Positions 2,446-43,551 of a stretch of DNA of 64,000 nucleotides are shown piece after piece. Source of the DNA: Nitrospirota bacterium (GTDB lineage Bacteria > Nitrospirota > JACRHJ01). The notes beneath the pieces are model-generated. The model ran no database searches. It was not told the DNA's origin and saw nothing but the letters and a program-made list of their open reading frames with translations. The DNA lies in the NCBI GenBank assembly GCA_016212105.1, contig JACRHJ010000046.1:30136-94135 (forward strand), given 5' to 3'. The position numbers and the translations under genes were made by a program. Each line of letters starts with the position of its first letter. Position 1 is the first letter of the stretch.

Positions 2446-2590
2446 AGTCTTTTTGCTTTACAACGGCACCCCCCTGTGTTATATTTTTTTATAAGAAAAG
2501 GGGTGTTCTGGCCTGACATTTGCAAGGACGGGACATCCCCCGGAACCATGAGGTCCGAAACGGGAAGCGACGCCCTGAGAGCGGCTTTAT

Positions 2591-4885: not shown

Positions 4886-6325
4886 ATGAGCCTGGAGATG
4901 AGGCTGGACCTAAAGCTTGCGCAGAAGCTGGTGATGACCCCCCAGCTCCAGCAGGCTATCAAGCTTCTGCAGCTCTCGAGGCTTGAGATGTCTCAGCTCG
5001 CCTACCAGGAGATGCTCGAAAACCCCGTCCTGGAGGACGCGACACTCGAGGTCGAGCCGGATACCGAGGAGCAGGAGCGGCTCCTGAAGGAGTCCGCCTC
5101 CGCCGCGGAAGAGCCGGCCTACGAAGACCGGGCGGTCGACGTCTTCGACATCAAATGGGACAACTACCTTGACGCCGACGAGTACCGGGAGGAGATGAAC
5201 CTCTACTCGGACTACGACGAGGACCTGCCCACCTACGACCAGACGCTTTCGTCGCATATAAGCCTCTCCGAACACCTGATGTGGCAGCTCATGCTCACGC
5301 CGACCAACGACGAGGAGAAGCTGGCCGGCGAGGTCATCATCGGGAACATAGACGACGACGGGTACCTGCGGGACATGACCGTCGAGGAAGTCGCCCGGAC
5401 CGCGGGCGTGGGCGTGGCCGCCGCAAGGAAGGCGCTCGGGATGGTGCAGGAGCTCGACCCGCCCGGCGTCGGCGCGCGCGACCTGCGCGAGTGCCTGCTG
5501 ATACAGGCGAGGCAGCTCGGCTTCGGCGGGACCATAGTCGAGGACATGATAAGGCGGCACCTGGAGGACATCGAGAAGAAACGGTTCGCGTCGGTCGCGC
5601 GTGACCTGAAGGTTTCCGTCAAGGAGGTAGCCGCCGCGGCCGATGTCATCGAGTCGATGGAGCCCAAGCCCGGCAGGCCGTTCATGGTCACGGACGTCCA
5701 GTACATCATACCGGACGTGTACGTGGTCAAGAAGGACGGCGAGTACGTCATCCTGCTGAACGACGAGGGTATGCCCAGGCTCAAGATCAGCCCGTTCTAC
5801 AAGAACCTGATGCGCTCGGGCGGCGACGACCAGACTAAGGAGTACATCGAGACAAAGCTCCGCTCCGCCCAGTGGCTGATCAAGAGCATCGAGCAGAGGA
5901 ACAAGACGATATTCCGCGTCACGGAGAGCATAGTCGTTCGTCAGAAGGAATTCCTGGACAGGGGCATACACAACGTCAAGCCGATGATACTCAGGGACGT
6001 GGCGGACGACATCGGCATGCACGAATCCACCATCAGCCGCGTAACGACCAACAAGTACATGCACACCCCGCAGGGTATATTCGAGCTGAAGTACTTCTTC
6101 TCCGGCGGCATATCGGGCGTCAACGGAGACTCGCTGTCGTCCATAGCCGTCCGGAGCCTTGTCCAAAAGACCATAAGCGAGGAGGACCCCAAAAACCCGC
6201 TGAACGACAGACGCATAGTTGACCTGCTCAAGAAGAAGAACATAGACATTGCAAGGCGGACCGTGGCGAAGTACCGCTGCGAACTGAAGATACCGCCTGC
6301 GAACGTGCGCAAGAAGCCCTGCTGA
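4886..6325 (+). CDS. rpoN: RNA polymerase sigma-54 factor
   Basis: The N-terminal Gln/Leu-rich region I (LAQKLVMTPQLQQAIKLLQLSRLEM), the core, and the C-terminal RpoN box ARRTVAKYR are all present. Confidence 0.9.
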   Translation: MSLEMRLDLKLAQKLVMTPQLQQAIKLLQLSRLEMSQLAYQEMLENPVLEDATLEVEPDTEEQERLLKESASAAEEPAYEDRAVDVFDIKWDNYLDADEYREEMNLYSDYDEDLPTYDQTLSSHISLSEHLMWQLMLTPTNDEEKLAGEVIIGNIDDDGYLRDMTVEEVARTAGVGVAAARKALGMVQELDPPGVGARDLRECLLIQARQLGFGGTIVEDMIRRHLEDIEKKRFASVARDLKVSVKEVAAAADVIESMEPKPGRPFMVTDVQYIIPDVYVVKKDGEYVILLNDEGMPRLKISPFYKNLMRSGGDDQTKEYIETKLRSAQWLIKSIEQRNKTIFRVTESIVVRQKEFLDRGIHNVKPMILRDVADDIGMHESTISRVTTNKYMHTPQGIFELKYFFSGGISGVNGDSLSSIAVRSLVQKTISEEDPKNPLNDRRIVDLLKKKNIDIARRTVAKYRCELKIPPANVRKKPC

Positions 6326-9694: not shown

Positions 9695-10108
9695 ATGATG
9701 GTCGGGCTTGTAATAGTCTGTCACGGAAACCTTGGCGCGGAACTCGTCAGGGTTGCCGAGCTTATAGTCGGGGTACAGGAGGGCGTGGCGACGGTCTCCG
9801 TCGGCTCGGTCGCGGAGGTGGACAAGGCCAGGGACGAGGTAGCCGCGGCCGTCAAGCGCGTCCAGGCCGGCGACGGCGTCCTCATCCTTACCGACATGTT
9901 CGGGGGCACCCCGTCCAACCTTTCCCTGTCGTTCCTCGACGAGGACAAGGTCGAGGTACTGACCGGGGTCAACCTGCCGATGCTGATAAAGTTCGCCAAC
10001 AACCGTAAGGAAAAGGGGCTGAAGGAGCTTATACCGATTGTCAGGGAGGGCGGCCTGAAAAGCATAATCGTCGCGAGCGACATGCTCCACCAGAAGGCAA
10101 AAAGGTGA
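9695..10108 (+). CDS. PTS EIIA component, mannose/fructose family
   Basis: MMVGLVIVCHGNLGAELV places the phospho-His early in the sequence, giving an EIIA-Man fold. RBS AAAGGAGAG precedes the ATG at 9695. The track ORF begins earlier, at 9617. Confidence 0.7.
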   Translation: MMVGLVIVCHGNLGAELVRVAELIVGVQEGVATVSVGSVAEVDKARDEVAAAVKRVQAGDGVLILTDMFGGTPSNLSLSFLDEDKVEVLTGVNLPMLIKFANNRKEKGLKELIPIVREGGLKSIIVASDMLHQKAKR

Positions 10109-14809: not shown

Positions 14810-17800
14810 GTGAACCACCGAATGTCCCTTCTCGAAACCTACATAAAAGAAGTAAGAGACATCCGCGCGACTGGCGCGGGAGTCAAAGAAACCTCCTATT
14901 ACCCTGCCCTGTCCAATCTCTTCAACGAAATCGGCAAGACCCTCAAGCCTAAAGTACGGTGCGTATCGCAGCTTGCCAAACGGGGCGCGGGCAGCCCGGA
15001 TTTCGGGCTGTTTACTGCCGACCAGTTCCAGAAGTCCAATAAGGAAGAGCCTGCACCCGGAGTAATGCCCGCGCGTGGCGTTATCGAGGTCAAGGGCACG
15101 GGCGACGATGCATGGGTTGTCGCGGACGGCGGCCAAGTCTCAAAGTACTGGGAACGTTACGGCCTCGTGCTGGTCACGAACTACCGCGACTTCGTGCTGG
15201 TCGGGAAGGACGTCGAAGGCGCACCGGTCAAGCTGGAGACGTACCGTCTCGCCGCAAATGAAAAGGAGTTCTGGTCAGCAGCGGCGAACCCGCGCAAGTT
15301 TGCCACGGCGCACGAGGAGCGCTTCGTCGAGTATATCAGGCGCGTCCTGCTGCACTCCGCCCCGCTGGAGAAGCCGGAAGACCTGGCGTGGTTCCTCGCG
15401 TCTTACGCGAGAGACGCGAAGGCCCGCATCGAGCACAGCGAGCTTGAGGCGCTCGGCTCCATACGCACCGCGCTGGAGGAAGCGCTCGGCATAAAGTTTA
15501 CAGGCGAAAAGGGCGACCACTTCTTCCGCTCGACCCTCATCCAGACGCTTTTCTACGGCATATTCTCGTCATGGGTGCTTTGGAGCAAGAAGCACAAGCC
15601 CACCGACAAGAAGGCGCGTTTCGACTGGCGCATGGCGGCGTGGAGCCTGCACGTCCCGATGATACGCGCATTGTTCGAGCAGGTGGCGACGCCGACCAAG
15701 CTCGGGCCGCTGGGCCTTGAGGAAGTGCTTGACTGGACGGCTACCGCCCTGAACCGTGTGGACCGCGCGAACTTCTTCGAGAACTTCGAGGAAGGCCATG
15801 CGGTGCAGTACTTCTACGAGCCATTCCTGAAGGCGTTCGACCCGGAGCTTCGCAAAGACCTCGGCGTATGGTATACCCCGCCCGAGGTCGTGAAGTACAT
15901 GGTGGAGCGCGTGGATACCGTCCTGCGCGAGGAACTCGGCCTGCCCGACGGGCTTGCCGACCCGAACGTATACGTCCTCGACCCCTGCACTGGTACAGGC
16001 TCGTTCCTTGTCGAGACGCTCAAGCGAATACACAAGACATACGACGAGCAAGGCGCGGGCGCGCTCGGCGGCGAGAAGCTGAAGGAGGCCGCGAAAAGCC
16101 GCGTCTTCGGGTTCGAGATACTGCCCGCCCCGTTCGTGGTCGCGCACCTTCAGCTCGGGCTTCTGCTTCAGAACCTCGGCGTCCCGCTCTCGGATAAAAA
16201 CAACGAGCGGGTCGGGGTTTACCTGACCAACGCCCTCACCGGCTGGGAGCCTCCTGAAGGCCCGCAGGCGAAAGTTAGCTTTCCTGAACTGGAGGAAGAG
16301 CGCGACGCAGCCGAGCATGTCAAGCGCGACAAGCCCATACTCGTGATACTCGGCAACCCGCCGTATAACGCCTTCGCGGGTGCCAGCCCGCAGGAGGAGC
16401 ACGGGCTGGTCGAGCCGTACAAAGAGGGGCTTGTCAAGGAATGGAAGATAAAGAAGTTCAACCTCGACGACCTGTACGTGCGCTTCTTCCGTCTCGCGGA
16501 GAGGCGGATCGCCGAGAAGACAGGGCGGGGCGTCGTCTGCTATATCTCCAACTTCTCGTACCTGGGCGACCCCTCGTTCGTCGTGATGCGCAAGCGTTTC
16601 CTCGCCGGGTTCGACAGGCTGTGGTTCGACTGCATGAACGGAGATTCCCGCGAGACAGGCAAGGTTACGCCGGACGGGAAGCCCGACCCGTCCGTGTTCT
16701 CGACGGAGTACAACCGCGAGGGGATACGGGTCGGGACGGCTATCGGATTGATGGTTCGGAAGGACGGGCGGGCGGGTTCGCCCGATGTGCGGTTCAGGCA
16801 CTTCTGGGGCGCGGACAAGCGCGGGCAGCTTGTGGAGAGTCTTTCGGCAAAGGACTTTGAAGGCTCTTATGAGATTGCCGAGCCAGAAGCCTGGAATTAC
16901 CATAATTTCAAAATACTTAAGGTATCGGATGAGTATAAAGAGTGGCCGAAGATAATAGACCTGTGCGCACATGAACCCTATAATGGGCCGGTGGAGCGCA
17001 GGGGCATGGCGTTGATTTCTATGGATAAGGATTCACTTGCAAATCGGATATTAGCATATTTCGATGCCGCTATTTCTGATGACGAGATCAAGAAAATTCA
17101 TCCGTCTTTGATGATGACCGGTAACAGAATAGTTGGCCCTGACGCAAGGACGAAAATACAGCACGATTTCAGATATGACGAATCTCGAATTGTACACTAC
17201 CCGTTCAAACCAATGGATGTTCGCTGGTGTTATCTGGAAAATCTGCGGCCATTGTTTAGTGAGCCAAGTCCCCAACTGCTTAATCAAAGAACTCCGGGCA
17301 ATGCATTCTTCATTACCCGTGATTCAGCGGACAAAGACGGCGAGGGCATACCGTTCTACTTCTCCTCAAGTATTTGTGATTATGATGCAATATCTGGTCA
17401 TGCACGACACGTTCCTATGTTAATCAATATCGATGTGTTAAGGAAAACCCCACATAGCGATTATTTGCACAAAAGAGATTTGAAAGCGGAATACGTTTCA
17501 AATATATCTGAACAAGCAATAGTGTACATTGAGGAACTCGGCGTTAATTACCAAAACAACTATGAAACTGCAAGCCTGATCTGGTTGCACGCCCTCGCCA
17601 TCGGCTACTCGCCGCAGTATCTGAAAGAGAACGCCGACGGCATAAAAATAGACTGGCCCCGCATCCCGCTCCCGAACAGCAAGGCGCAACTGCAAAACTC
17701 CGCGAATCTCGGCAAAAAGATAGCCGCGCTCCTCGACACGGAAGGCCAAGTCCCCGGCGTAACCACGGGCAAAATACGACCAGAACTAAAGAATATGGCG

Positions 17801-18292
17801 GCCTGCGCAAAGGTGGGCGGCGGGAACCTCGACATAAACAAAGGCGAGTCCGCCCTGACCGCAGGCTGGGGCCACGGCGGAAAGGACGGCATAACCATGC
17901 CGGGCAAGGGAAAAGCCGTCGAGCGCGACTACACGCCCGAAGAGAAGGCCGCGATAGAAGAAGGCGCAAAGGCGCTCGGCCTTACGCTCGACGAGGCGAT
18001 GGAGCACCTCGGCGAGACCACATATGACATATACCTGAACGATACGGCCTACTGGAAGGACATCCCGCGCAAGGTATGGGAGTACACGATAGGCGGCTAC
18101 CAGGTAATGAAAAAGTGGCTGTCCTACCGCGAGCGCGACCTGCTTGGACGCGCGCTGACCGCCGATGAAATCACCGAGGTGACAAACATGGCGCGCAGGA
18201 TAGCCGCGATAGTCCTGCTTGAGCGGGAACTCGACGGCAACTACATAAAGGCCAAGGATGGCGCATACCGGTGGAAGGGTGAAGGCGGATAA
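14810..18292 (+). CDS. Type IIG/IIL-like fused restriction endonuclease - N6-adenine DNA methyltransferase
   Basis: It is 1160 aa. The N-terminal PD-(D/E)xK-like motif reads GSPDFGLF...GVIEVKG. The gamma-class MTase motifs are VLDPCTGTGSFL (SAM binding) and NPPY (catalytic). A C-terminal specificity region follows. GTG 14810 and ATG 14822 are the candidate starts. Confidence 0.6.
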   Translation: MNHRMSLLETYIKEVRDIRATGAGVKETSYYPALSNLFNEIGKTLKPKVRCVSQLAKRGAGSPDFGLFTADQFQKSNKEEPAPGVMPARGVIEVKGTGDDAWVVADGGQVSKYWERYGLVLVTNYRDFVLVGKDVEGAPVKLETYRLAANEKEFWSAAANPRKFATAHEERFVEYIRRVLLHSAPLEKPEDLAWFLASYARDAKARIEHSELEALGSIRTALEEALGIKFTGEKGDHFFRSTLIQTLFYGIFSSWVLWSKKHKPTDKKARFDWRMAAWSLHVPMIRALFEQVATPTKLGPLGLEEVLDWTATALNRVDRANFFENFEEGHAVQYFYEPFLKAFDPELRKDLGVWYTPPEVVKYMVERVDTVLREELGLPDGLADPNVYVLDPCTGTGSFLVETLKRIHKTYDEQGAGALGGEKLKEAAKSRVFGFEILPAPFVVAHLQLGLLLQNLGVPLSDKNNERVGVYLTNALTGWEPPEGPQAKVSFPELEEERDAAEHVKRDKPILVILGNPPYNAFAGASPQEEHGLVEPYKEGLVKEWKIKKFNLDDLYVRFFRLAERRIAEKTGRGVVCYISNFSYLGDPSFVVMRKRFLAGFDRLWFDCMNGDSRETGKVTPDGKPDPSVFSTEYNREGIRVGTAIGLMVRKDGRAGSPDVRFRHFWGADKRGQLVESLSAKDFEGSYEIAEPEAWNYHNFKILKVSDEYKEWPKIIDLCAHEPYNGPVERRGMALISMDKDSLANRILAYFDAAISDDEIKKIHPSLMMTGNRIVGPDARTKIQHDFRYDESRIVHYPFKPMDVRWCYLENLRPLFSEPSPQLLNQRTPGNAFFITRDSADKDGEGIPFYFSSSICDYDAISGHARHVPMLINIDVLRKTPHSDYLHKRDLKAEYVSNISEQAIVYIEELGVNYQNNYETASLIWLHALAIGYSPQYLKENADGIKIDWPRIPLPNSKAQLQNSANLGKKIAALLDTEGQVPGVTTGKIRPELKNMAACAKVGGGNLDINKGESALTAGWGHGGKDGITMPGKGKAVERDYTPEEKAAIEEGAKALGLTLDEAMEHLGETTYDIYLNDTAYWKDIPRKVWEYTIGGYQVMKKWLSYRERDLLGRALTADEITEVTNMARRIAAIVLLERELDGNYIKAKDGAYRWKGEGG

Positions 18293-24715: not shown

Positions 24716-24722
24716 CGCAAAC

Positions 24723-24757
24723 GAAGGGGAAGCCAAAAGGCTTCCCCTTTTGTTGTT
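24723..24757 (+). terminator. rho-independent terminator after tRNA-Val
   Basis: gaaggggaagcc-aaaa-ggcttcccc is followed by ttttgttgtt. Confidence 0.6.
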
Positions 24758-24811
24758 AATTTGGCCGATAATCTCCGTCACCCTCTTACCACATCCCAAT
24801 AAGACCAAAGA

Positions 24812-24850: not shown

Positions 24851-25027
24851 TATGCACGGTGGGCGCAGCCCACCCTACAACTTCTTCCCCCTCCCCACCC
24901 GCGGGGGAGGGGGGCAGGGGGGCTGGGGGCGTCTCTACCTTATTCTCCCCCTCTCCTTTCGGGAGAGGGGGCCGGGGGTGAGGGAGCCCCCACTTGCCAT
25001 CCTGAAATTTTATGGCATACTTGTTTC

Positions 25028-25246
25028 ATGTGCTTCGACAAACTCATAGAGCGCCTCGACAGGTTCGAGGCCGACCCGGGACTCATCCACACAAAGGACG
25101 GGGCCGTAGAGCTGCTGTGCGCCGACTGCGACTTCTACAAGGACAGCGACAAGGACCTCGAATGCGGCGCGTTCAAGCTGCTGCGGCTCCTGCTCGACAA
25201 GAAGGCGCTCACGCTGAAGCAGATATCCGATGCGGTCAGGCAGTAG
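25028..25246 (+). CDS. small Cys-containing protein (72 aa); candidate precursor or partner of the downstream radical SAM/SPASM maturase
   Basis: Its stop codon sits 17 nt inside the radical SAM start, consistent with translational coupling. It has 4 Cys (C2, C31, C34, C46: LLCADCDFYKDSDKDLECG) and no recognisable enzyme motif. Confidence 0.3.
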   Translation: MCFDKLIERLDRFEADPGLIHTKDGAVELLCADCDFYKDSDKDLECGAFKLLRLLLDKKALTLKQISDAVRQ

Positions 25247-26489
25247 GTACATAGCCCTGTCCGACGGCTGCGTACTCAGGCGGCTTGAGACCCCGTGCGT
25301 CTACGACAGGCGCACCGATGAGCTGTACGAGCTTGGCGACGAGGCGGCGGAGTTCCTCCGGCTGTGCGACGGGACGAGGACCCTGCGGGAGCTTGGCTGC
25401 GAGCCGGGGGGCGGGTTCGAAGAAGACGCCGACCTGCTCGACTACTGCTTCGCCGAGGGGATCCTCACCGCGTCCGACAGGCCCTCGCCCAGAATCTTCC
25501 GCGACGGCAAGTCCCCGCCGGTATCGCTCCGGTACCTCGAATTCCAGATAACCAGCCGCTGCAACCTGCGCTGCCGCCACTGCTACATAGACCTTGTCGG
25601 CCGCCGGGAGATGGAGGCGCTCGACGTATTCCGTGTTATGGACGAGTTCGACGGGATGCAGGGCCTCAGGCTGCTGATAAGCGGCGGTGAGCCGCTTACG
25701 CACACAGATTTCTGGGCGATCAACGCACGGCTGCCTGAGTACGGTTTCAGGTCCGTCCTGATGACGAACGGGACGCTCGTCGACGCCGAGGCCGCCGAAC
25801 GCCTGAACGTCCAGGAGGCCCAGGTGAGCCTCGACGGCATGCGCGTCGCCCATGACATCATCAGGGGGACCGGCGCGTTCGACAAGGCCGTGGCCGGCAT
25901 CGAACGGCTGCTTGTGGCCGGGAAGAAGGTCTCGGTGGCGACGATGGTAACCGCCATCAACAGGAACGATTTCGACGACATGGCGAGGCTCATGGAATCG
26001 CTCGGCGTGCACGAATGGAACGTGGACGCCCCTTCGCTCACCGGGCGGTTCAGGAACAACCCCGGCCTGCTGCTCCATCCCGAGCTGTCCGCGAGGTACA
26101 TGGAGTACGGCTTCGGAGGCGGGTTGCACGAAGGGCGCGAGGGATACACATGCGGCGCGCACCTCTGCGCGGCCGGGCCGGGCGGGCAGGTCGCCAAATG
26201 CGGATTTTACCTCGACAGCCCGTCGGGTCACATATCGGAAGGGCTTGCCCGGTGCTGGGCCAGGATGGCGCCGGAACCGGTCGGCAAGCTCGACTGCGAC
26301 TGCGTCCATATCGAGAAATGCAGGGGCGGGTGCAGGTTCCGCGCCTCGACATATTCGGGAGAGTTTGGTCCGGACCCGGTGAAGTGCGCCGGTTTCGGTG
26401 TCAGGCCATGCATGGACAGGTTCAACGGGGAAGGAGGTGGCAGGCATGACTATTACAAAGGTAGCGAAGGTATCGGCGAGCGTCTGTAA
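25230..26489 (+). CDS. radical SAM/SPASM peptide-modifying enzyme with N-terminal PqqD-like RRE domain
   Basis: The N-terminus GDEAAEFLRLCDGTRTLREL matches the PqqD/RRE hallmark. The radical SAM cluster is CNLRCRHC, followed by the GGEPL motif. A C-terminal SPASM-type Cys cluster (CDCVHIEKCRGGC) is present, with additional upstream Cys. Confidence 0.75.
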   Translation: MRSGSRYIALSDGCVLRRLETPCVYDRRTDELYELGDEAAEFLRLCDGTRTLRELGCEPGGGFEEDADLLDYCFAEGILTASDRPSPRIFRDGKSPPVSLRYLEFQITSRCNLRCRHCYIDLVGRREMEALDVFRVMDEFDGMQGLRLLISGGEPLTHTDFWAINARLPEYGFRSVLMTNGTLVDAEAAERLNVQEAQVSLDGMRVAHDIIRGTGAFDKAVAGIERLLVAGKKVSVATMVTAINRNDFDDMARLMESLGVHEWNVDAPSLTGRFRNNPGLLLHPELSARYMEYGFGGGLHEGREGYTCGAHLCAAGPGGQVAKCGFYLDSPSGHISEGLARCWARMAPEPVGKLDCDCVHIEKCRGGCRFRASTYSGEFGPDPVKCAGFGVRPCMDRFNGEGGGRHDYYKGSEGIGERL

Positions 26490-26748: not shown

Positions 26749-26826
<78 letters not shown>

Positions 26827-26911
26827 ATGTGGGCGACGAGGATGGCAAGGGGGGATGGACGGGAGGTTGCCGTCCAAGAGAGTTTCACCCTTGTTTCCGT
26901 CCTCTTGATGG

Positions 26912-26988
26912 GCGCCCGTAGCTCAGGCGGATAGAGCAACAGCCTTCTAAGCTGTGGGCCGCAGGTTCGAGTCCTGCCGGGCGCACCA
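26912..26988 (+). tRNA. tRNA-Arg (anticodon TCT)
   Basis: Acceptor gcgcccg/cgggcgc, anticodon stem acagc/gctgt with loop ctTCTaa, and CCA. Confidence 0.75.
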
Positions 26989-27063
26989 GACTGGCCGGCG
27001 GCATGCAGGACCGGAAAGCGGTGCAAAATCCCCTGGCGCGGAAACGGGCAAGGTCAGCCGGTG

Positions 27064-27139
27064 TGGTGAGTGTAGCACAATGGTAGTGCACCAGATTGTG
27101 GATCTGGGCGTTGTGGGTTCGAGCCCCATCACTCACCCC
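27064..27139 (+). tRNA. tRNA-His (anticodon GTG) with G-1
   Basis: An extra 5' G precedes acceptor gtgagtg/cactcac. The anticodon stem ccaga/tctgg carries loop ttGTGga, and CCA is encoded. Confidence 0.75.
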
Positions 27140-27195
27140 AACTCTTCCGGGCACGAGCTTTGGCGGGAAGCCGTTGTTGTGGCGGGACTTCACAT

Positions 27196-27272
27196 GCGCC
27201 CGTAGCTCAGTTGGATAGAGCGTCGGACTTCGAATCCGCAGGTCGCAGGTTCGAGCCCTGCCGGGCGCACCA
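27196..27272 (+). tRNA. tRNA-Arg (anticodon TCG)
   Basis: Acceptor gcgcccg/cgggcgc, anticodon loop ctTCGaa, T-arm gcagg-ttcgagc-cctgc, and CCA. Confidence 0.65.
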
Positions 27273-27354
27273 TAAGGGGCCCGGGCGGGCAGTCCGGAAG
27301 CCGGGCGGTACTTGGGCTCCGGTTGCGAGAGAATACCCGTACCGCGGGTGATAC

Positions 27355-27431
27355 GCGCCTGTAGCTCAGTTGGATAGAGCAACGGATTCCGGTTCCGTGT
27401 GTCGGGAGTTCGAGTCTCTCCAGGCGCGCCA
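27355..27431 (+). tRNA. tRNA-Arg (anticodon CCG)
   Basis: Acceptor gcgcctg/caggcgc, anticodon stem acgga/tccgt with loop ttCCGgt, and CCA. Confidence 0.75.
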
Positions 27432-27448
27432 GATTTTGCTTTTTAGTT

Positions 27449-27475
27449 GTCATTCCCGCGAAAGCGGGAATCCAG
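27449..27475. repeat. REP-B palindrome copy (between tRNA-Arg and tRNA-Lys)
   Basis: gtcattcccgcgaaagcgggaatccag. Confidence 0.65.
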
Positions 27476-27497
27476 GGTTTATACAATATTTGAAGTT

Positions 27498-27573
<76 letters not shown>

Positions 27574-27804
27574 AAACTTATCAAGGGGTTAGGCGTTATC
27601 GCCTAACCCCTTTGTTGTTTCCGGTTGTTAATATAACCGAGTGCGGCCCTCAGTAATGAAAATGGCAGTTCACGGCTTACAAATTCCGCTAATTGCGCGT
27701 AAACGAGCAACGAGAAGAGCGTTATCGCTATGCATGTCGTACGATTCCATCATTAATTAGCTCCAATATCCTGTACTATATCGATTATCGTTTTATCGTT
27801 CTAC

Positions 27805-27820
27805 GGGCACAAAACTTGCA
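27805..27820 (+). promoter_or_regulatory. sigma-54-type -24/-12 promoter element (GGGCAC-N5-TTGCA) in front of the first multiheme cytochrome
   Basis: cGGGCACaaaacTTGCAtt matches the TGGCAC-N5-TTGCW consensus, with the invariant GG and GC correctly spaced. It sits at the 3' end of an ~230-bp AT-rich region with TATCGTT-type direct repeats (27607..27804), and rpoN is encoded in this window. Confidence 0.5.
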
Positions 27821-27840
27821 TTAATTATTAAAGACTATTC

Positions 27841-29493
27841 ATGAGTGTTTTTACTCATAAGATTGATATTGTTGCAGGCGCGTCAACAATAAATGAGGAT
27901 AACGTGAGAAAACTTCATAAAAACGCCAATAAAACCTATTGGCTGTACCTCCTTCTGGTGATATTCGCGGCCGCGCTGGTCGCACCGGACCAGGCCTTTG
28001 CGGCGCCTATCGGCTGCGGAGGCTGTCACAGCACTCCTCCGTCGGATACGGACAGCGAGGGTTGTCTCGTCGAGACCGCCAAGAGCCATCTGGCTCACTC
28101 AAGCGCGGACACCTCCACATGTCTCAGATGCCACCCGGCCCCCGGCACGGTGCACGCGCCCGGCGGCAGGCATTACGACGGCCTGGTCAACGTCACCTCG
28201 CTGCCCGGACTTGGAATGAACTACACCAAGGCGGACTCGACCTGCACGAGCGTCTGCCACAAGAACGAGAACTCATACGTCTGGGGCGGAAGTCTTGACT
28301 GCAACTCCTGCCACTTCAGGAGCGGCGCGCAGGGCAACTACATCATGTCCGGACAGCACATGGCGTCGGACCGGAGTTTCCGGCATTTCAGCTCCCCCAT
28401 AAAGGTCACTGACAACACGAAGACCATTACGTGCGCCAACTGCCACCCTGTAAACGGGGGCGACAACACCGCGCCGCGAAGCCATATCAACTCGGCCAGC
28501 TTCGACAAGAAGGCCGACATGTCGGAGGCGCACACCTACGTCAACGTATCCGGCGTGGGCATCGTAAAGGGCGCGACGGCGGCGGACGCGACCTGCTCGA
28601 ACTCCTGCCACTACAACGGCACGGATACGTTTGGGCTGCTGACGACGTACTTCAGGCCCGGCCAGAAGGTCCGGTTCGGCCCGTACCAGAGTTCGAACTG
28701 GGGCTCGGAAGACCTCAACTGCAACGAGTGCCACAGCTCCCCGAGCCAGAGCGCGAGCTTCGGCGGGTCGAGCAGCGTGAACGCCGACAAGCACCATACG
28801 TCCCACATGTTCAAGTACAAGCTGGCCGCCGGCAGGTACGCGAACGACGACAAGAACATATACTGCTACGACTGCCACCGCCTCCCCGACATGTCAGGGA
28901 CCCGCGGGTTCAAGGGGCACTCCACGACAGGTCAGGGCGGGAGCGGTATGATATCCCTGCCAGTGAAGTCCGGAAACGCCAAGGTGAACATCGCGTGGCG
29001 CAACGGCAACGTCGGCCACGACGGCATCAACCCGCCCGCGTACGACAAGGACGCAAGGACCTGCGACAACGTGTACTGCCACACCGCCATATCTTCCGCG
29101 ACCTGGACCGACAGGGCCTGCGACGACTGCCACGGCGTCCGGGGCGGCGTCCTGACCGGCTCCGGCGCCCCCGGCTACAGGAACTGGACCACCCCGGCCA
29201 CGTACCCCGAGTTCCAGGAGTACGCGGGCGGCGGCGGCGCACACTACCTGCACGTCTTCGGACGCGGGTACACCTGCAACACCTGCCACAGCAGCGGCGG
29301 CAAGGACGGCAACCCCGCCAACCACAACCAGGGCGCGGGTACGGTCATCAGGGCCAACGTGAACGTCGGCATGGAGACCGCGTACTGGTTCAACGGCGTT
29401 CCTTCTTCGTACGATACAGCTACCAGGACCTGCCTGAGCGTCAACTGCCATTACGGGACGTCGAGGAGCTGGGACTGCGAGCCGCTTCATTAA
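27841..29493 (+). CDS. multiheme c-type cytochrome (~12 heme-binding motifs), secreted
   Basis: Of the 12 motifs, eight are CXXCH (CGGCH, CLRCH, CNSCH, CANCH, CNECH, CYDCH, CDDCH, CNTCH). The rest are CX3CH (CTSVCH, CSNSCH) and CX4CH (CDNVYCH, CLSVNCH). The signal peptide is KTYWLYLLLVIFAAALVAPDQAFA. The likely true start is GTG 27904 with a GAGGA RBS. The C-terminal module (...NCHYG.S..W.C) is shared with the 1994-aa paralog. Confidence 0.8.
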   Translation: MSVFTHKIDIVAGASTINEDNVRKLHKNANKTYWLYLLLVIFAAALVAPDQAFAAPIGCGGCHSTPPSDTDSEGCLVETAKSHLAHSSADTSTCLRCHPAPGTVHAPGGRHYDGLVNVTSLPGLGMNYTKADSTCTSVCHKNENSYVWGGSLDCNSCHFRSGAQGNYIMSGQHMASDRSFRHFSSPIKVTDNTKTITCANCHPVNGGDNTAPRSHINSASFDKKADMSEAHTYVNVSGVGIVKGATAADATCSNSCHYNGTDTFGLLTTYFRPGQKVRFGPYQSSNWGSEDLNCNECHSSPSQSASFGGSSSVNADKHHTSHMFKYKLAAGRYANDDKNIYCYDCHRLPDMSGTRGFKGHSTTGQGGSGMISLPVKSGNAKVNIAWRNGNVGHDGINPPAYDKDARTCDNVYCHTAISSATWTDRACDDCHGVRGGVLTGSGAPGYRNWTTPATYPEFQEYAGGGGAHYLHVFGRGYTCNTCHSSGGKDGNPANHNQGAGTVIRANVNVGMETAYWFNGVPSSYDTATRTCLSVNCHYGTSRSWDCEPLH

Positions 29494-35563: not shown

Positions 35564-35576
35564 GTCGTAGGGAGAA

Positions 35577-35607
35577 CCCCCTGGAGGCCGGTAACGGCCT
35601 CCAGGGG
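35577..35607 (+). terminator. strong stem-loop (cccctggaggccg-gtaa-cggcctccagggg) after cytochrome 2; no U-tract
   Basis: It is a perfect 13-bp stem. It is related to the stem-loop after cytochrome 3 (42241..42267), sharing the gaggccg-N3-4-cggcctc core. It may be an attenuator or an RNA-stability element rather than a full terminator. Confidence 0.4.
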
Positions 35608-35623
35608 TGAACTTATTCAGGTC

Positions 35624-35652
35624 TTGGGTATTGGCCGAAAATGTGCTATATT
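35624..35652 (+). promoter_or_regulatory. candidate extended -10 sigma-70 promoter (TTGGGT-N17-TGcTATATT) for the second giant cytochrome
   Basis: The extended -10 element aTGtGcTATATT lies at 35642..35652, about 120 nt upstream of the ATG at 35776. Confidence 0.3.
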
Positions 35653-35775
35653 CGGCCTTGTCCCTAGCCCTGAAAAGTGCGGACGCGGGGAGAAACTCCG
35701 CGTCCTTCTGGTTGCGTTATTCAATACGAGACCTTATATTTAATAGATATAGATTTTCCGCACACGGAGGAACCG

Positions 35776-38700
35776 ATGAGGCGTATAGCTCTCGAAGGCA
35801 GTATCACATACATTGCCGCGCTGGCGGCGGCGCTGATAGTCATGTTGTCGCCAGGCTCCGCGCTTGCGGTCAAGTATTGGACCAATACCGGGACGGTCAC
35901 TGCTACGGCGAACGGCAATGCGATAAACGTCAGCGCGACCTACACCACAGGTGGCACAAGCTGCGGTAACGGCGGAGACACAGCGCCGACGTTCTTCGTG
36001 GAGTGGGACGTTACGCCCGCCGACTGGACGGGCGCGGGATACGGCTCGTCCGGCGGGTACAATGCGGACACGGGCGGGGTATCGCCTTACGCCTATACGA
36101 CGCCAAACCTCGCGGCCGGGACCTACGCGGTCAGGGTTACCTACGAAGACGCCAACGGTATAGCCTCCTGCGGCGGCGGCAACGTCGCGGTAAACGCCGG
36201 CTCCAACGTGACGCTGGTAGCGAACAACCTCACAGTGGGGACGAACTCCGCGGTAGTAAACTCGTCGACGCAGATAACCGCCTCGGCGACGTTCTCTGAC
36301 GACATCAACGGGAACAGCAACACCAGCTTCCGTTACAGCACGAACGCCGGCGGCCCCTGGACGGACAAGTGCCTGAGCGTTACAGGAAATTCGCCGCGTA
36401 CCTGCGTGATAGACGGCCTCTCCGCGAGCACGGACTACTACGTACAGGTAACGCATGCAGACGCGGACGGCGTGACCGGGACGAACCCGCAGGTCGTGGG
36501 CCCGTACACGACACAGTCCGCGGTCGCCTGCGACCCGCTGGTCAACGACTGCTCAGACTGCCACGCGGCCCCGCCTGCCGACTGGGACGGTATCAGCCCG
36601 AAGGCCGGTACCACCGGCCACAAGGGCGACCACGCAGTCCCCGCCCACACCTCGGACGGCGCGAGGGACAAGTGTGCGATATGCCACTTCAAGTATTCGG
36701 GCATGGTGAATGTCACATCGGCCGCGCGCTGGCCGGTGGGACATTTAAACGGCATACTGGACATATATACATCCAACCACGTGGCAAACAAGGTATTCTC
36801 CGCCCCGTACGACAAGGGCATCAAGGGCGGCTACTACAAGGGCTACAGGAACAGGTCAACCATATTCGAAGAAAAAGCCGCGAACGCCAACAACGCCTGC
36901 ACTGCGACGTACTGCCACGGCGCGGGCGACTCGCCCGTATGGGGGACAGGCACGGCCTCGTGCGGCAGCTGCCACTCGCTTCCGCCGTCCGCGGGCAAGC
37001 ACGCAACGCACAGCCAGGGACTCGTCGGGCACGGAAACGGCAACAGCGGCACGACTTACGACTTCGGCTGCTACAAATGCCACTCCAACACGTCGGGCCA
37101 CTCCGCCGGCCCGGTGAGCGCGAACCGCGCGGCGCTTGTGGACTTCAACAACCTCTCGTCGCCCGTGAACGCCTCCGGCTCCTACGTGGAAGGCGCGCTC
37201 GCGGGCACGGACGGGACGTTCAAATGGACGAACGGGACCTGCAACGGCCTTTACTGCCACTCGACCGGCAAGGGCGGCGCGCCCGGCACCACGGCCACCT
37301 GGAACGGCACGATGGCGGCGAACTGCGCGGGCTGCCACAGGGGCACTACGGCATCCGGAACGCCGATGAACTCGGGCAAGCACACCCAGCACATGACCTC
37401 CGGCGCGTACAACTACGCCTGCAACAAGTGCCACAACGACACGACCACCACCGGCACGACCGTGACTAATACCGCGTTCCACGTCAACTCCTCGATCGAC
37501 GTGAAGTTCGAGGGGCAGAACCCCACCGGCTCATATGCTGGCACGACATGTTCGAGCATGTCCTGCCACTCGGACGGCGCGGGCGGCACGGGAAGCGCGG
37601 ACTGGACCGGTGCCGCCATGACATGCACGTCGTGCCACAAGTTCAACAAGGCCGCGGCCCCCAACGACATCACAAGCGGGAAGCACACGCAGCACATAAA
37701 CAACGGCGACCTCGGCAAGATATCCTGCTCGCAGTGCCACAGGCTGACCGTCAGCGCGGGCGATTCGCCCGTCACCGGCTACTCAAGGCACGTGAACGCC
37801 GCCAAGGACGTCTATTTCAACGCGCTCAACACTTACACCGGCTTCTACACCGGCGCGTACACCTGCCGCAACAACTACTGCCACAGCTCGGGCCAGGCGA
37901 CCCCGACGTTCCGGACTGCTGACGCGTGGAACGGCGCGACGACGTACACGTGCAACGCGTGCCACGGCGCGGACAACTACTACACGGACGTGAACGGGTC
38001 TCCTGACTACCAGAACGTCTCGTCCTCGACGCGCAACAGCTTCAACGGGCATTACCTGCCCGGCCACGTAGCCGCGACCGGCGACTGCATCGACTGCCAC
38101 AGGACTGTCGTGAACAACTTCGGGAACCTGACGACCGGCACGGTGAAGCACATAGACGCCACGAGGGACGTTATGTTCAAGGGCGGCGGCTCATACGCCA
38201 ACAAGCGCTGCACGAACACGAACTGCCACGGGACGACTGCGGTGCGCTGGGGCGGCAAGCTTCCGAAGGACTGCCAGTCCTGCCACAGCGACCAGGGCGC
38301 GGGCTCGTATGCGAACCACAGCACGACCGGCAAGCACAGGAAGCACACTGATTCGGCGACCTACAACTACGCGTGCGAGGTATGCCACGCGCTCCTTAAC
38401 GCGAGCGGCAACACGGACCACGCGAAGGGCGACGTCGGCGCGAACCAGGCTGCGCAGATAGTGTTCCACAGCGCGACGACGGCATGGCGCACGAAGACCT
38501 ACGGCTCTGGCGGCGCCGCCAAGCGGTACGTCCAGATGGACAGCGCGCTTGGCGCGGCGCACAGCCCTGTATACGCGGCCGGCCCGGCCTCGGCGGGCTC
38601 CGACCCGGTGAACGTGAACCGCAAGTGGACTCAGGGCCGCTGCACTGCCATATGGTGCCACTCGAACGGCCAGAGCACGCCGACGTACGTTAACTTTGCT

Positions 38701-42291: not shown

Positions 42292-43551
42292 ATGAGACGC
42301 CAGTTTATCATACCTGCCATGACTGCGGCGTTCATCGCCGCCGCCATGACGTACGCGTCCGTCGCGCCGTGCGCGACGGTCAGGGACCAGGACGGCAAGG
42401 TAGTGCTGGAGATTAAGGGAGCAGGGAGCGTGCCTAGGCTGATACCGCTCCTCGGGGACGACAGGCCGGAGGTCAGCGCACAGGCCATGGACGCCCTTGT
42501 GGAGATGGACGGTGACGCCGTGCCTGAGCTTATAGTGGAGCTGAAAGGGCCGAGGTTCAGAGAGGTTGCCATAGCCCTTGGGAAGATAAAGGATGCTCGC
42601 GCCGTAGTGCCGCTGTCAGAGTACATAAACGACATCACCTGGGAGAAGGCCGGGGTCGCAAGGGGCGCGCTGAGGGAGTTGGGCGACGCATCCGTACCGA
42701 GGATGGCGGAGCTTCTGAAAGACTCACGTTACCGGGATGCCGCTGCCGACGTGCTCCAGTACCTGAGCGGACCGCGCGCCGTCGAGGCCGTAGCGCCGCT
42801 TGCGGCGGATATCGACCCAGCCGTGCGCGGCGCGGCCATTCTGCTCCTGGTGAAGCTCGGGGCTCCTGGGGCGGGTGATGTTATACGTGGGGGGCTGACA
42901 GACAATGACCCGGCCGTGCGAGCGAAGGCCGCGGAGGCCTACATGGTCTCAGGCGAACGCGAAAGGCAGCTGCTTTACGGGATGCTCAAGGACGGTGACC
43001 TCGGCGTAAGGACGCTCGCGGCCAACATGCTTGAGGCCGCGCCGCACATGGAAAACTTTGGCCCGCTACTCGAATGCTACAGGGTTGAGAAGGACGGCAT
43101 GGCGAGGTCTATCGAGCTGTCCGCCCTGGGCGAGACCGGCGATGCGCGTGCCGTTCCCCTGATGCTGGAGGCGCTGGGGGATGGCAGCGAAGAGGTGGTC
43201 CTTTCAGCGCTGGTCTATTTTACCGAGCACCGCGACGAGCGGTCGGTCCCGGCGATACTGAAACTCTACGAAGGCCCGAAACATCCAGAAAACCCGCACG
43301 TGCTGATCTTTTCGCTCGACGCCCTGAAGTATCATAACTACAAAGGCGCGCATGGATTCGTCCTGGGTTACCTGGGAGAAGGCTGGCATTTCAAGCACAA
43401 GTCCGCAGCCCTGAACTACCTTGCCGAGACCGCGAGCGAGGGTGACACGAGTGTAGCTGACGCGGTAAGACGTATGCTCGGGAATGAGACCGACCTGACA
43501 CTCCGCGCCGCCGCCGACAGGGTGCTGAAGAGGGTCGGGCAGCTACCGTAG
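42292..43551 (+). CDS. secreted HEAT-repeat protein (PBS-lyase/E-Z type HEAT-like repeats)
   Basis: It has a signal peptide (AAFIAAAMTYASVA) and repeated ~30-aa units of the form [LV]..LL.D.D..VR..A..AL..xG (DPAVRGAAILLLVKLG, DNDPAVRAKAAEAY, DGDLGVRTLAANML...). Confidence 0.6.
   Translation: MRRQFIIPAMTAAFIAAAMTYASVAPCATVRDQDGKVVLEIKGAGSVPRLIPLLGDDRPEVSAQAMDALVEMDGDAVPELIVELKGPRFREVAIALGKIKDARAVVPLSEYINDITWEKAGVARGALRELGDASVPRMAELLKDSRYRDAAADVLQYLSGPRAVEAVAPLAADIDPAVRGAAILLLVKLGAPGAGDVIRGGLTDNDPAVRAKAAEAYMVSGERERQLLYGMLKDGDLGVRTLAANMLEAAPHMENFGPLLECYRVEKDGMARSIELSALGETGDARAVPLMLEALGDGSEEVVLSALVYFTEHRDERSVPAILKLYEGPKHPENPHVLIFSLDALKYHNYKGAHGFVLGYLGEGWHFKHKSAALNYLAETASEGDTSVADAVRRMLGNETDLTLRAAADRVLKRVGQLP

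Follow-up and report, generated by a model that had tools for sequence, protein, structure and literature searches.

Control of respiratory cytochromes by sigma-54 is already known in Geobacter. In Geobacter sulfurreducens, cbcBA is transcribed from a sigma-54 promoter and needs the adjacent bacterial enhancer-binding protein (bEBP) BccR (GSU0598) (bioRxiv 10.1101/2021.04.15.440034). Here we describe a candidate sigma-54 promoter of the -24/-12 type, GGGCACAAAACTTGCA (GGGCAC-AAAAC-TTGCA), which precedes genes for giant multihaem cytochromes in a 64-kb stretch of DNA (the window). The host is an uncultured Nitrospirota (Nitrospirae) known from a metagenome-assembled genome (MAG; NCBI proteins MBI5191121 and neighbours, locus tags HZA22_). 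The population is present in SRR12113407 and SRR12113397. Like cbcBA, the locus would be a respiratory multihaem cytochrome operon behind a -24/-12 promoter that is switched on by an AAA+ response-regulator activator and not expressed constitutively. The Geobacter activator gene is the divergent neighbour of its operon, and induction is lost when it is deleted, whereas here no activator gene lies within at least 27 kb to the left or at least 36 kb to the right. The products also differ: cbcBA encodes a bc-type inner-membrane complex, whereas the Nitrospirota genes, from another phylum, encode CxxCH/CxxxxCH cytochromes of 529, 1994 and 2150 amino acids (aa). A literature search found no published link between sigma-54 and Nitrospirota cytochromes.

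The element also resembles sigma-54 promoters in general (Barrios consensus mrNrYTGGCACG-N4-TTGCWNNw; PMC3844500; PMC2725144). It has the GG-N10-GC spacing with exact GGCAC and TTGCA blocks, is intergenic and co-oriented with the gene that follows, and rpoN is present. Unlike the consensus, it carries G for the near-invariant T before GG and A for the G after GGCAC, and no enhancer or integration host factor (IHF) site is recognisable beside it.

A candidate sigma-54 promoter before the cytochrome genes

Sequence statistics and genomic context indicate that the element at 27805-27820 is probably a genuine sigma-54-dependent promoter. Its GG-N10-GC register is canonical. Compared with the core TGGCAC-N5-TTGCW, the sole mismatch is the first T (G here), and compared with the longer TGGCACG-N4-TTGCW it matches at 10 of 12 positions, the second difference being at a weakly conserved G. 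The TGGCAC-type consensus is quoted in PMC2725144, and among validated Geobacter promoters 9-11 of 13 consensus positions agree. The GGGCAC-N5-TTGCA that a sequence-only reading of this DNA had matched to the sigma-54 consensus is thus present, in the correct register and with good agreement.

We scored the window with a position matrix built from 29 intergenic Salmonella sites confirmed by chromatin immunoprecipitation (ChIP; PMC3844500 Table 3). The element reaches 15.2 bits and ranks second among 128,000 positions, and a second matrix, based on the Barrios compilation, gave 15.4 bits and the same picture. At this score 0.19 matches are expected by chance per 128 kb and 0.001 in the 291-nt gap before the first cytochrome gene, given local base composition. 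The top three matches, at 25013 (16.2 bits), 27805 (15.2 bits) and 2509 (14.8 bits), are all on the + strand and in or at gaps before + strand genes, and the fourth (11.9 bits) is intragenic. That the best matches all lie 5' of genes suggests that the matrix finds real sites in this host. The 3' end of the element is 82 nt from GTG 27904, with which it is co-oriented; sigma-54 promoters in Salmonella are reported 27-154 bp from the start codon (PMC3844500).

The sigma factor itself is encoded in the window, in a cluster with the order lptC-lptA-lptB-rpoN-hpf-ptsN-hprK. The gene lies 21.5-22.9 kb 5' of the motif, in agreement with the distance of about 22 kb given earlier.

The cytochrome genes follow an array of six tRNA genes on the + strand (26750-27574; ARAGORN). 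The array ends in an intrinsic terminator (Table 1), and a terminator of similar style follows tRNA-Val at ~24722-24760. Because the strong terminator behind tRNA-Lys makes read-through unlikely, the cytochrome genes need a promoter of their own within 27613-27903. Neither a tool scan nor a relaxed scan found a usable sigma-70 promoter in the 291-nt gap. The single + strand candidate, TTGATA-16-AACAAT (27863-27890), would start transcription at ~27897, within the ribosome-binding site (RBS), and its -35 hexamer TTGATA becomes TTAATA in the strain variant L022. Every other sigma-70 pair in the gap reaches at most 7/12 in the relaxed scan.

From the predicted start, the leader would be ~73 nt long, a sensible length and close to the ~70-nt 5' untranslated region proposed by the sequence-only reading. 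That reading had also taken GTG 27904, with its GAGGA RBS, as the true start. Our data agree: this start gives a canonical, clean signal peptide (MRKLHKNANKTYWLYLLLVIFAAALVAPDQAFA/AP), 18 homologue N-termini align to it, and the NCBI protein likewise has 529 aa. The alternative ATG 27841 would add 21 residues with acidic side chains. Leader folding does not exceed that of shuffled sequence (z = -0.28), and a search against Rfam gave no match at E <=1 except tRNAs. A structured leader or riboswitch was considered and rejected on these two grounds.

The mechanism that we infer, from sigma-54 binding and the start site to the existence and identity of an activator and the extent of the operon, would run as follows. 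RNA polymerase carrying sigma-54 would bind GG (-24) and GC (-12) and wait as a closed complex. An AAA+ activator (a bEBP), encoded elsewhere in the genome, would remodel this complex, and transcription would start near 27831. The transcript would comprise the leader, the 529-aa cytochrome and, most likely, the 1994-aa cytochrome; it may also extend through the genes of the 2150-aa cytochrome and the HEAT-repeat protein. Control of the giant cytochromes by a bEBP and sigma-54, as originally proposed, is partly supported, in that the promoter is plausible and rpoN is present; neither the window nor the flanks sampled beside it yielded a bEBP gene.

Should the promoter prove real, an ATP-dependent activator would switch two (perhaps three) of the host's largest multihaem cytochromes all-or-none, which would offer a handle on the timing of the presumed extracellular electron-transfer machinery. 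A constitutively active bEBP domain could then activate them heterologously, as was done for Salmonella (PMC3844500). Since Geobacter cbcBA/BccR already establishes the principle, the gain would be one more case, in a new phylum, and no new mechanism.

Table 1 Features of the window around the candidate promoter and motifs of homologous clusters (L014, L015, L016, L018).
Feature	Position or sequence	Strand	Details
rpoN (sigma-54)	4886..6325	+	AID, CBD and DBD Pfam domains, E = 6e-15 to 1e-61; NCBI name sigma-54
tRNA-Lys(CTT), sixth and final tRNA of array	27499..27574	+	ARAGORN; Rfam tRNA 76.5 bits
Intrinsic terminator of tRNA array	27583..27612	+	13-bp stem, 8 G-C pairs, 100% complementary, tail TGTTGTTTCC
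AT-rich spacer 5' of promoter	27613..27804	.	~39-41% GC; no recognisable activator or IHF site
TATCG direct repeats TATCGATTATCG / TTTTATCGTT	27779..27800	+	Repeat search; ~-52 to -31
Candidate sigma-54 -24/-12 element	27805..27820	+	GG 27806-7, GC 27818-9
Predicted transcription start	27829..27833 (~27831)	+	From standard -12 numbering; 12 nt past C of GC
Predicted 5' leader, ~73 nt	27831..27903	+	Two small hairpins, 27841-27858 and 27867-27891
RBS GAGGA	27895..27899	+	Four bases before GTG 27904
Gene 1, multihaem cytochrome, 529 aa	27904..29493	+	GTG start; NCBI 529 aa
Gene 2, giant multihaem cytochrome, 1994 aa	29579..35563	+	
Gap between genes 2 and 3, 213 nt	35564..35776	+	Two GC-rich hairpins, sigma-70-like pair
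Gene 3, giant multihaem cytochrome, 2150 aa	35777..42228	+	ATG, RBS GGAGGA; also 2150 aa in sister assembly
HEAT-repeat protein	42292..43551	+	Last + strand gene of cluster
L015 motif	GGGTATATTATTTGCA		Directly 3' of a histidine kinase and NtrC/AtoC-family bEBP pair
L014 motif	CGGTACGGATGTTGCA		Island conserved between L014 and L016, surrounding DNA diverged
L016 motif	CGGTACGGTTGTTGCA		Same island as L014
L018 motif	AGGAATGGATATTGCA		

How far the transcription unit may reach

Genes 1 and 2 are separated by a gap of 85 nt that holds no terminator, so they are probably co-transcribed. The gap between genes 2 and 3 differs in content. It has a 12-bp GC hairpin at 35579-35608, a terminator-like hairpin at 35681-35705 and a sigma-70-like pair, TTGCGT (35712)-17-TATATT (35735-40), which ends 37 nt before ATG 35777. 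This gap is 98% identical in a sister assembly, where the T-tail is not conserved. ATG 35777, which gives a good signal peptide, is the start of gene 3, not GTG 35677. The gap may be a boundary between transcription units, with gene 3 having its own promoter. The description of the element as the promoter driving the cytochrome locus may therefore hold for genes 1 and 2 only and is overstated for the locus as a whole, since gene 3 may be served separately. We also noticed a weak sigma-54-like sequence, TGGCCGAAAATGTGCT, at 35632-35647, itself within a hairpin.

The AT-rich tract upstream of the element

The sequence-only reading had described an AT-rich tract of ~230 bp in GC-rich surroundings, with direct repeats, and had interpreted the layout as an upstream activator sequence with a DNA-bending site. 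The composition and the repeats were borne out. The tract (27607-27840) has 40.6% GC compared with 60.5% window-wide, just 0.6% of 234-nt segments are equally AT-rich, and the GC minimum of the 64-kb window begins at 27700. The repeats lie where they had been placed, include an exact tandem 8-mer (TTATCGTT x2, 27785-27800) and are identical in L022.

The interpretation, by contrast, is not supported: the repeats are unenriched and promoter-proximal, there is no IHF consensus and there is no significant dyad. Enhancers bound by bEBPs are usually dyad-symmetric or tandem sites ~80-200 bp 5' of the promoter. The TATCG repeats (~-52 to -31) abut the polymerase footprint and are not at enhancer distance. 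An enrichment of TATCG/TTATCG was rejected, as word counts were ordinary in first-order Markov simulations of the tract: in 52-64% of these some 5-mer or 6-mer was equally frequent or commoner. The tandem TTATCGTT repeat is possibly a slippage duplication. On inspection, NifA-type TGT-N10-ACA sites were absent from the tract, and its small open reading frames (ORFs) are only 27-43 aa long and unsupported. No motif common to the tract and the upstream regions of homologous clusters was found (best E = 0.11). A palindrome seen by eye in four upstream regions, TGAG[TC]G-N4-5-[AG]CTCA, was discarded on account of its short-word BLAST values (E >=0.4) and its varying position relative to the promoter. 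The AT-rich DNA is best read as ordinary promoter-region DNA, with nothing in it that could be assigned as an activator or IHF site.

Homologous clusters differ at the 5' end of gene 1

We compared the locus with twelve loci found by scanning genomes and metagenomes and with six retrieved through exact protein matches. Close sequences are limited to an identical contig (L013, 100%) and the strain variant L022 (97.7%). In L022, nine substitutions fall in the 377 nt upstream and none in the 16-mer, for which P is ~0.7 under neutrality. Seven of the nine cluster at 27825-27880, the 56 nt just past the -12 block (12.5% local divergence), and three of these seven leader-region changes are in hairpin loops and none in stems. 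The pattern is compatible with constraint on the 16-mer and not statistically significant; the two sequences are too close to be informative.

The closest homologues of gene 1 share 47-58% identity and come from other Nitrospirota MAGs. Among the examined loci, none shares the arrangement of the window: tRNA genes, an AT-rich tract and a sigma-54 motif are each missing in front of the homologue, and no matrix match lies within 700 nt upstream of it. In those clusters the homologue stands third. Ahead of it come another cytochrome gene, a GC-rich hairpin, then a hairpin that is conserved, and a likewise conserved AAGGAGGA RBS. The conserved hairpin spans 52-116 nt (CUGURU..CAGG..GCGCAA..UUGCGC..CCUG..AYACAG), shows compensatory changes in 8 of 20 pairs and has no Rfam match. 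With a covariance model it was recovered from all homologous loci, always ~60-150 nt 5' of the gene 1 homologue, and from nowhere in the 64-kb window. In all, ~20 homologues share an MGY... signal peptide, the conserved RBS and the leader hairpin, and the N-terminus and upstream region of gene 1 in the window differ from them. Gene 1 thus has a replaced 5' end: its signal peptide, its leader and its promoter are all different.

In the cytochrome operons of Nitrospirota, this hairpin is a candidate for a new element, either a cis-regulatory leader or one that acts in processing. Examples are found at L015:9403-9454 and 9888-9939, L014:9851-9936, L016:9877-9937, L018:9847-9939 and L004:243-358, 815-900 and 2762-2848. 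Across L001-L021 it scores higher on the + than on the - strand.

The clusters L014-L018 resemble the window in having a ~530-aa cytochrome followed by giant ones, and in an AT-rich gap of ~400-500 nt before the first gene that contains a GG-N10-GC/TTGCA motif. This motif is present before the first cytochrome in four of the homologous clusters (Table 1). Unlike the window, these clusters have weaker versions (GGTAC, GGTAT or GGAAT), and their homologue of gene 1 stands third and behind the leader hairpin. GGTAC sites are among those bound in vivo in Salmonella (PMC3844500). The motifs lend weak support to the sigma-54 reading.

Two strong sigma-54-type sequences were observed elsewhere in L016, both on the + strand: TGGCCCGGCTCTTGCA at L016:20118-20133, ~90 nt before a DUF1573 gene, and TGGTACTGTTCTTGCA at L016:18251-18266, in the convergent gap that follows the giant cytochrome gene. 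Promoters of the sigma-54 type seem to be frequent in the surroundings of these clusters.

L014 (GCA_016222885.1, JACRQC010000063.1) derives from the same population as the window or a sister population. It is a second, paralogous cluster with cytochromes of 683, 478 and 536 aa followed by one of >3700 aa, with genes for a dCache-GAF histidine kinase and for a NarL-type response regulator in front of it. Set against the window, this means that the two giant-cytochrome clusters have different neighbouring regulators. Tentatively, and as a possibility that falls short of likely, the population may run the two paralogous clusters under different regulation. L014 would keep the ancestral layout of NarL-type two-component system, upstream cytochromes, leader hairpin and ~530-aa cytochrome, and the gene in the window would have been relocated behind the tRNA array, shedding the hairpin leader and gaining a sigma-54 promoter together with a new signal peptide. 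If this is true, two giant extracellular-type cytochromes would be switched tightly on or off by an unlinked bEBP, which might respond, for instance, to redox state or to the electron acceptor.

Weighing the sigma-54 promoter against its alternatives

Several observations weigh against a sigma-54 promoter at 27805. The 29 training sites themselves score 16.2-23.6 bits, so that the element at 15.2 bits is just below the weakest of them, and its first position is G where Salmonella always has T. High rank is no proof of function either, as the top-ranked match, at 25013, overlaps a small ORF at its ATG. By chance, GGCAC-N5-TTGC is expected 0.62 times per window (at least one match in 49 of 100 shuffles), and TGGCAC-N5-TTGCW with at most one mismatch 1.6 times. 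Six-frame translation of the 64-kb window contains no GAFTGA or Walker A signature of a bEBP gene, and the sampled flanks, covering the next 10 kb on the right and 2 kb on the left, contain no such gene. On both strands of 27613-27830 there is no match to the IHF consensus WATCAANNNNTTR with one mismatch or fewer, and no convincing or significant dyad activator site is present in the tract, where inverted repeats are short or imperfect (77-89% complementarity). The motifs of the homologous clusters reach at most ~7 bits with the Salmonella matrix, and two of the clusters, L014 and L016, stand next to regulators of the NarL type, which as a rule work with sigma-70. Finally, the homologues are internal operon genes with another leader and so offer no comparison for the promoter by conservation.

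The missing IHF site and the missing linked activator do not refute a sigma-54 promoter, because IHF is optional at such promoters and activator genes are often unlinked; what they take away is the case made for the activator-site layout. Window-wide the core motif is no commoner than chance; it is position and orientation that make the element unusual. Of all strand positions, 4.35% are in intergenic DNA upstream of a gene and co-oriented with it, so ~0.03 core matches (0.62 x 4.35%) are expected in such gaps. A comparison of matrix score with background, suggested by the sequence-only reading and made here for the window, gave a divided result: the matrix places the element second with 0.19 expected, but the bare core occurs at chance frequency.

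The -24/-12 match could thus be a coincidence in AT-rich promoter DNA, the genes being transcribed from a sigma-70-family promoter (housekeeping or extracytoplasmic function) that E. coli-style scans do not see, perhaps aided by a conventional response regulator. We consider this rather unlikely. It would fit the 0.6-1.6 core motifs expected per window, the lack of a bEBP, activator site or IHF site near the element in the window and sampled flanks, and the situation in L014 and L016, where NarL-type neighbours are accompanied by a perfect TATAAT just past TTGCA; because sigma-70 promoters of Nitrospirota are poorly characterised, the negative sigma-70 scan is also weak evidence. It accords poorly with the ~0.03 matches expected in co-oriented upstream gaps and with the leading matrix matches all being 5' of genes. 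The best sigma-70 pair, moreover, would start transcription in the RBS and is weakened in L022, and no other pair exceeds 7/12. That sigma-54 does bind, but at a poised or repressive site, or one that yields only a short leader transcript, and not at a productive operon promoter, seems very unlikely. The element has the position and orientation of a normal promoter, with a terminator upstream and no other promoter downstream, and the leader that follows is not unusually structured and belongs to no Rfam family. The idea draws on Salmonella, where 58% of ~70 ChIP sites are intragenic or non-canonical and such roles have been proposed for many of the non-promoter sites (PMC3844500), as well as on the two leader hairpins after the element and the want of a recognisable activator site. 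More remote still is a mobile-element insertion at tRNA-Lys that left the AT-rich tract as a scar, with the cytochromes as cargo or rearranged neighbour and the motif incidental. tRNA genes are common integration sites, and the N-terminus and upstream region of gene 1, unlike those of ~20 homologues, point to rearrangement at this junction; yet no copy of the tRNA-Lys 3' end exists anywhere in the window, the tract holds no integrase or transposase ORF, and the cytochrome genes share the GC content of the genome, also at third codon positions (GC3). A past rearrangement would in any case be compatible with a working promoter, and a sigma-54-dependent promoter at 27805-27820 is the reading we favour.

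Other features of the window

The two further matrix matches were found beside other genes. At 2509-2524 (+), TGGCCTGACATTTGCA, the first or third sigma-54 match depending on the matrix, follows an AT-rich stretch and lies 67 nt before lptC (2591). It may be a sigma-54 site 5' of rpoN's own cluster, raising the question of autoregulation. The top Salmonella-matrix match, TGGCATACTTGTTTCATG at 25013-25030 (+), has TTTCA replacing TTGCA. The small ORF that it overlaps (25028-25246) encodes a Cys-rich, acidic product of 72 aa (MCFDKLIERLDRFEADPG...), has no visible RBS and ends just within a radical SAM gene (25230-26489). This product could serve the radical SAM enzyme as a precursor peptide or as a small partner.

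Between tRNA-Val and this small ORF, at 24880-24990, there is a run of G-rich/C-rich palindromic hairpins, for example CCCCCTCCCC..GGGGGAGGGGGG and CTCCCCCTCTCC-TTTC-GGGAGAGGGGG, which looks like a repetitive extragenic palindromic (REP)-like repeat. A hairpin of eight perfect base pairs closed by a GAAA loop (ATTCCCGC-GAAA-GCGGGAAT), located in the spacer between tRNA-Arg(CCG) and tRNA-Lys (27452-27471), may be a processing or repeat element. Further upstream, 14810-18292 (+) encodes a Type ISP restriction-modification enzyme of 1160 aa (N6_Mtase and Type_ISP_C). Its internal GC falls to 0.37-0.42 around 16900-17450 and its GC3 of 0.72 is below that of its neighbours, which suggests horizontal acquisition.

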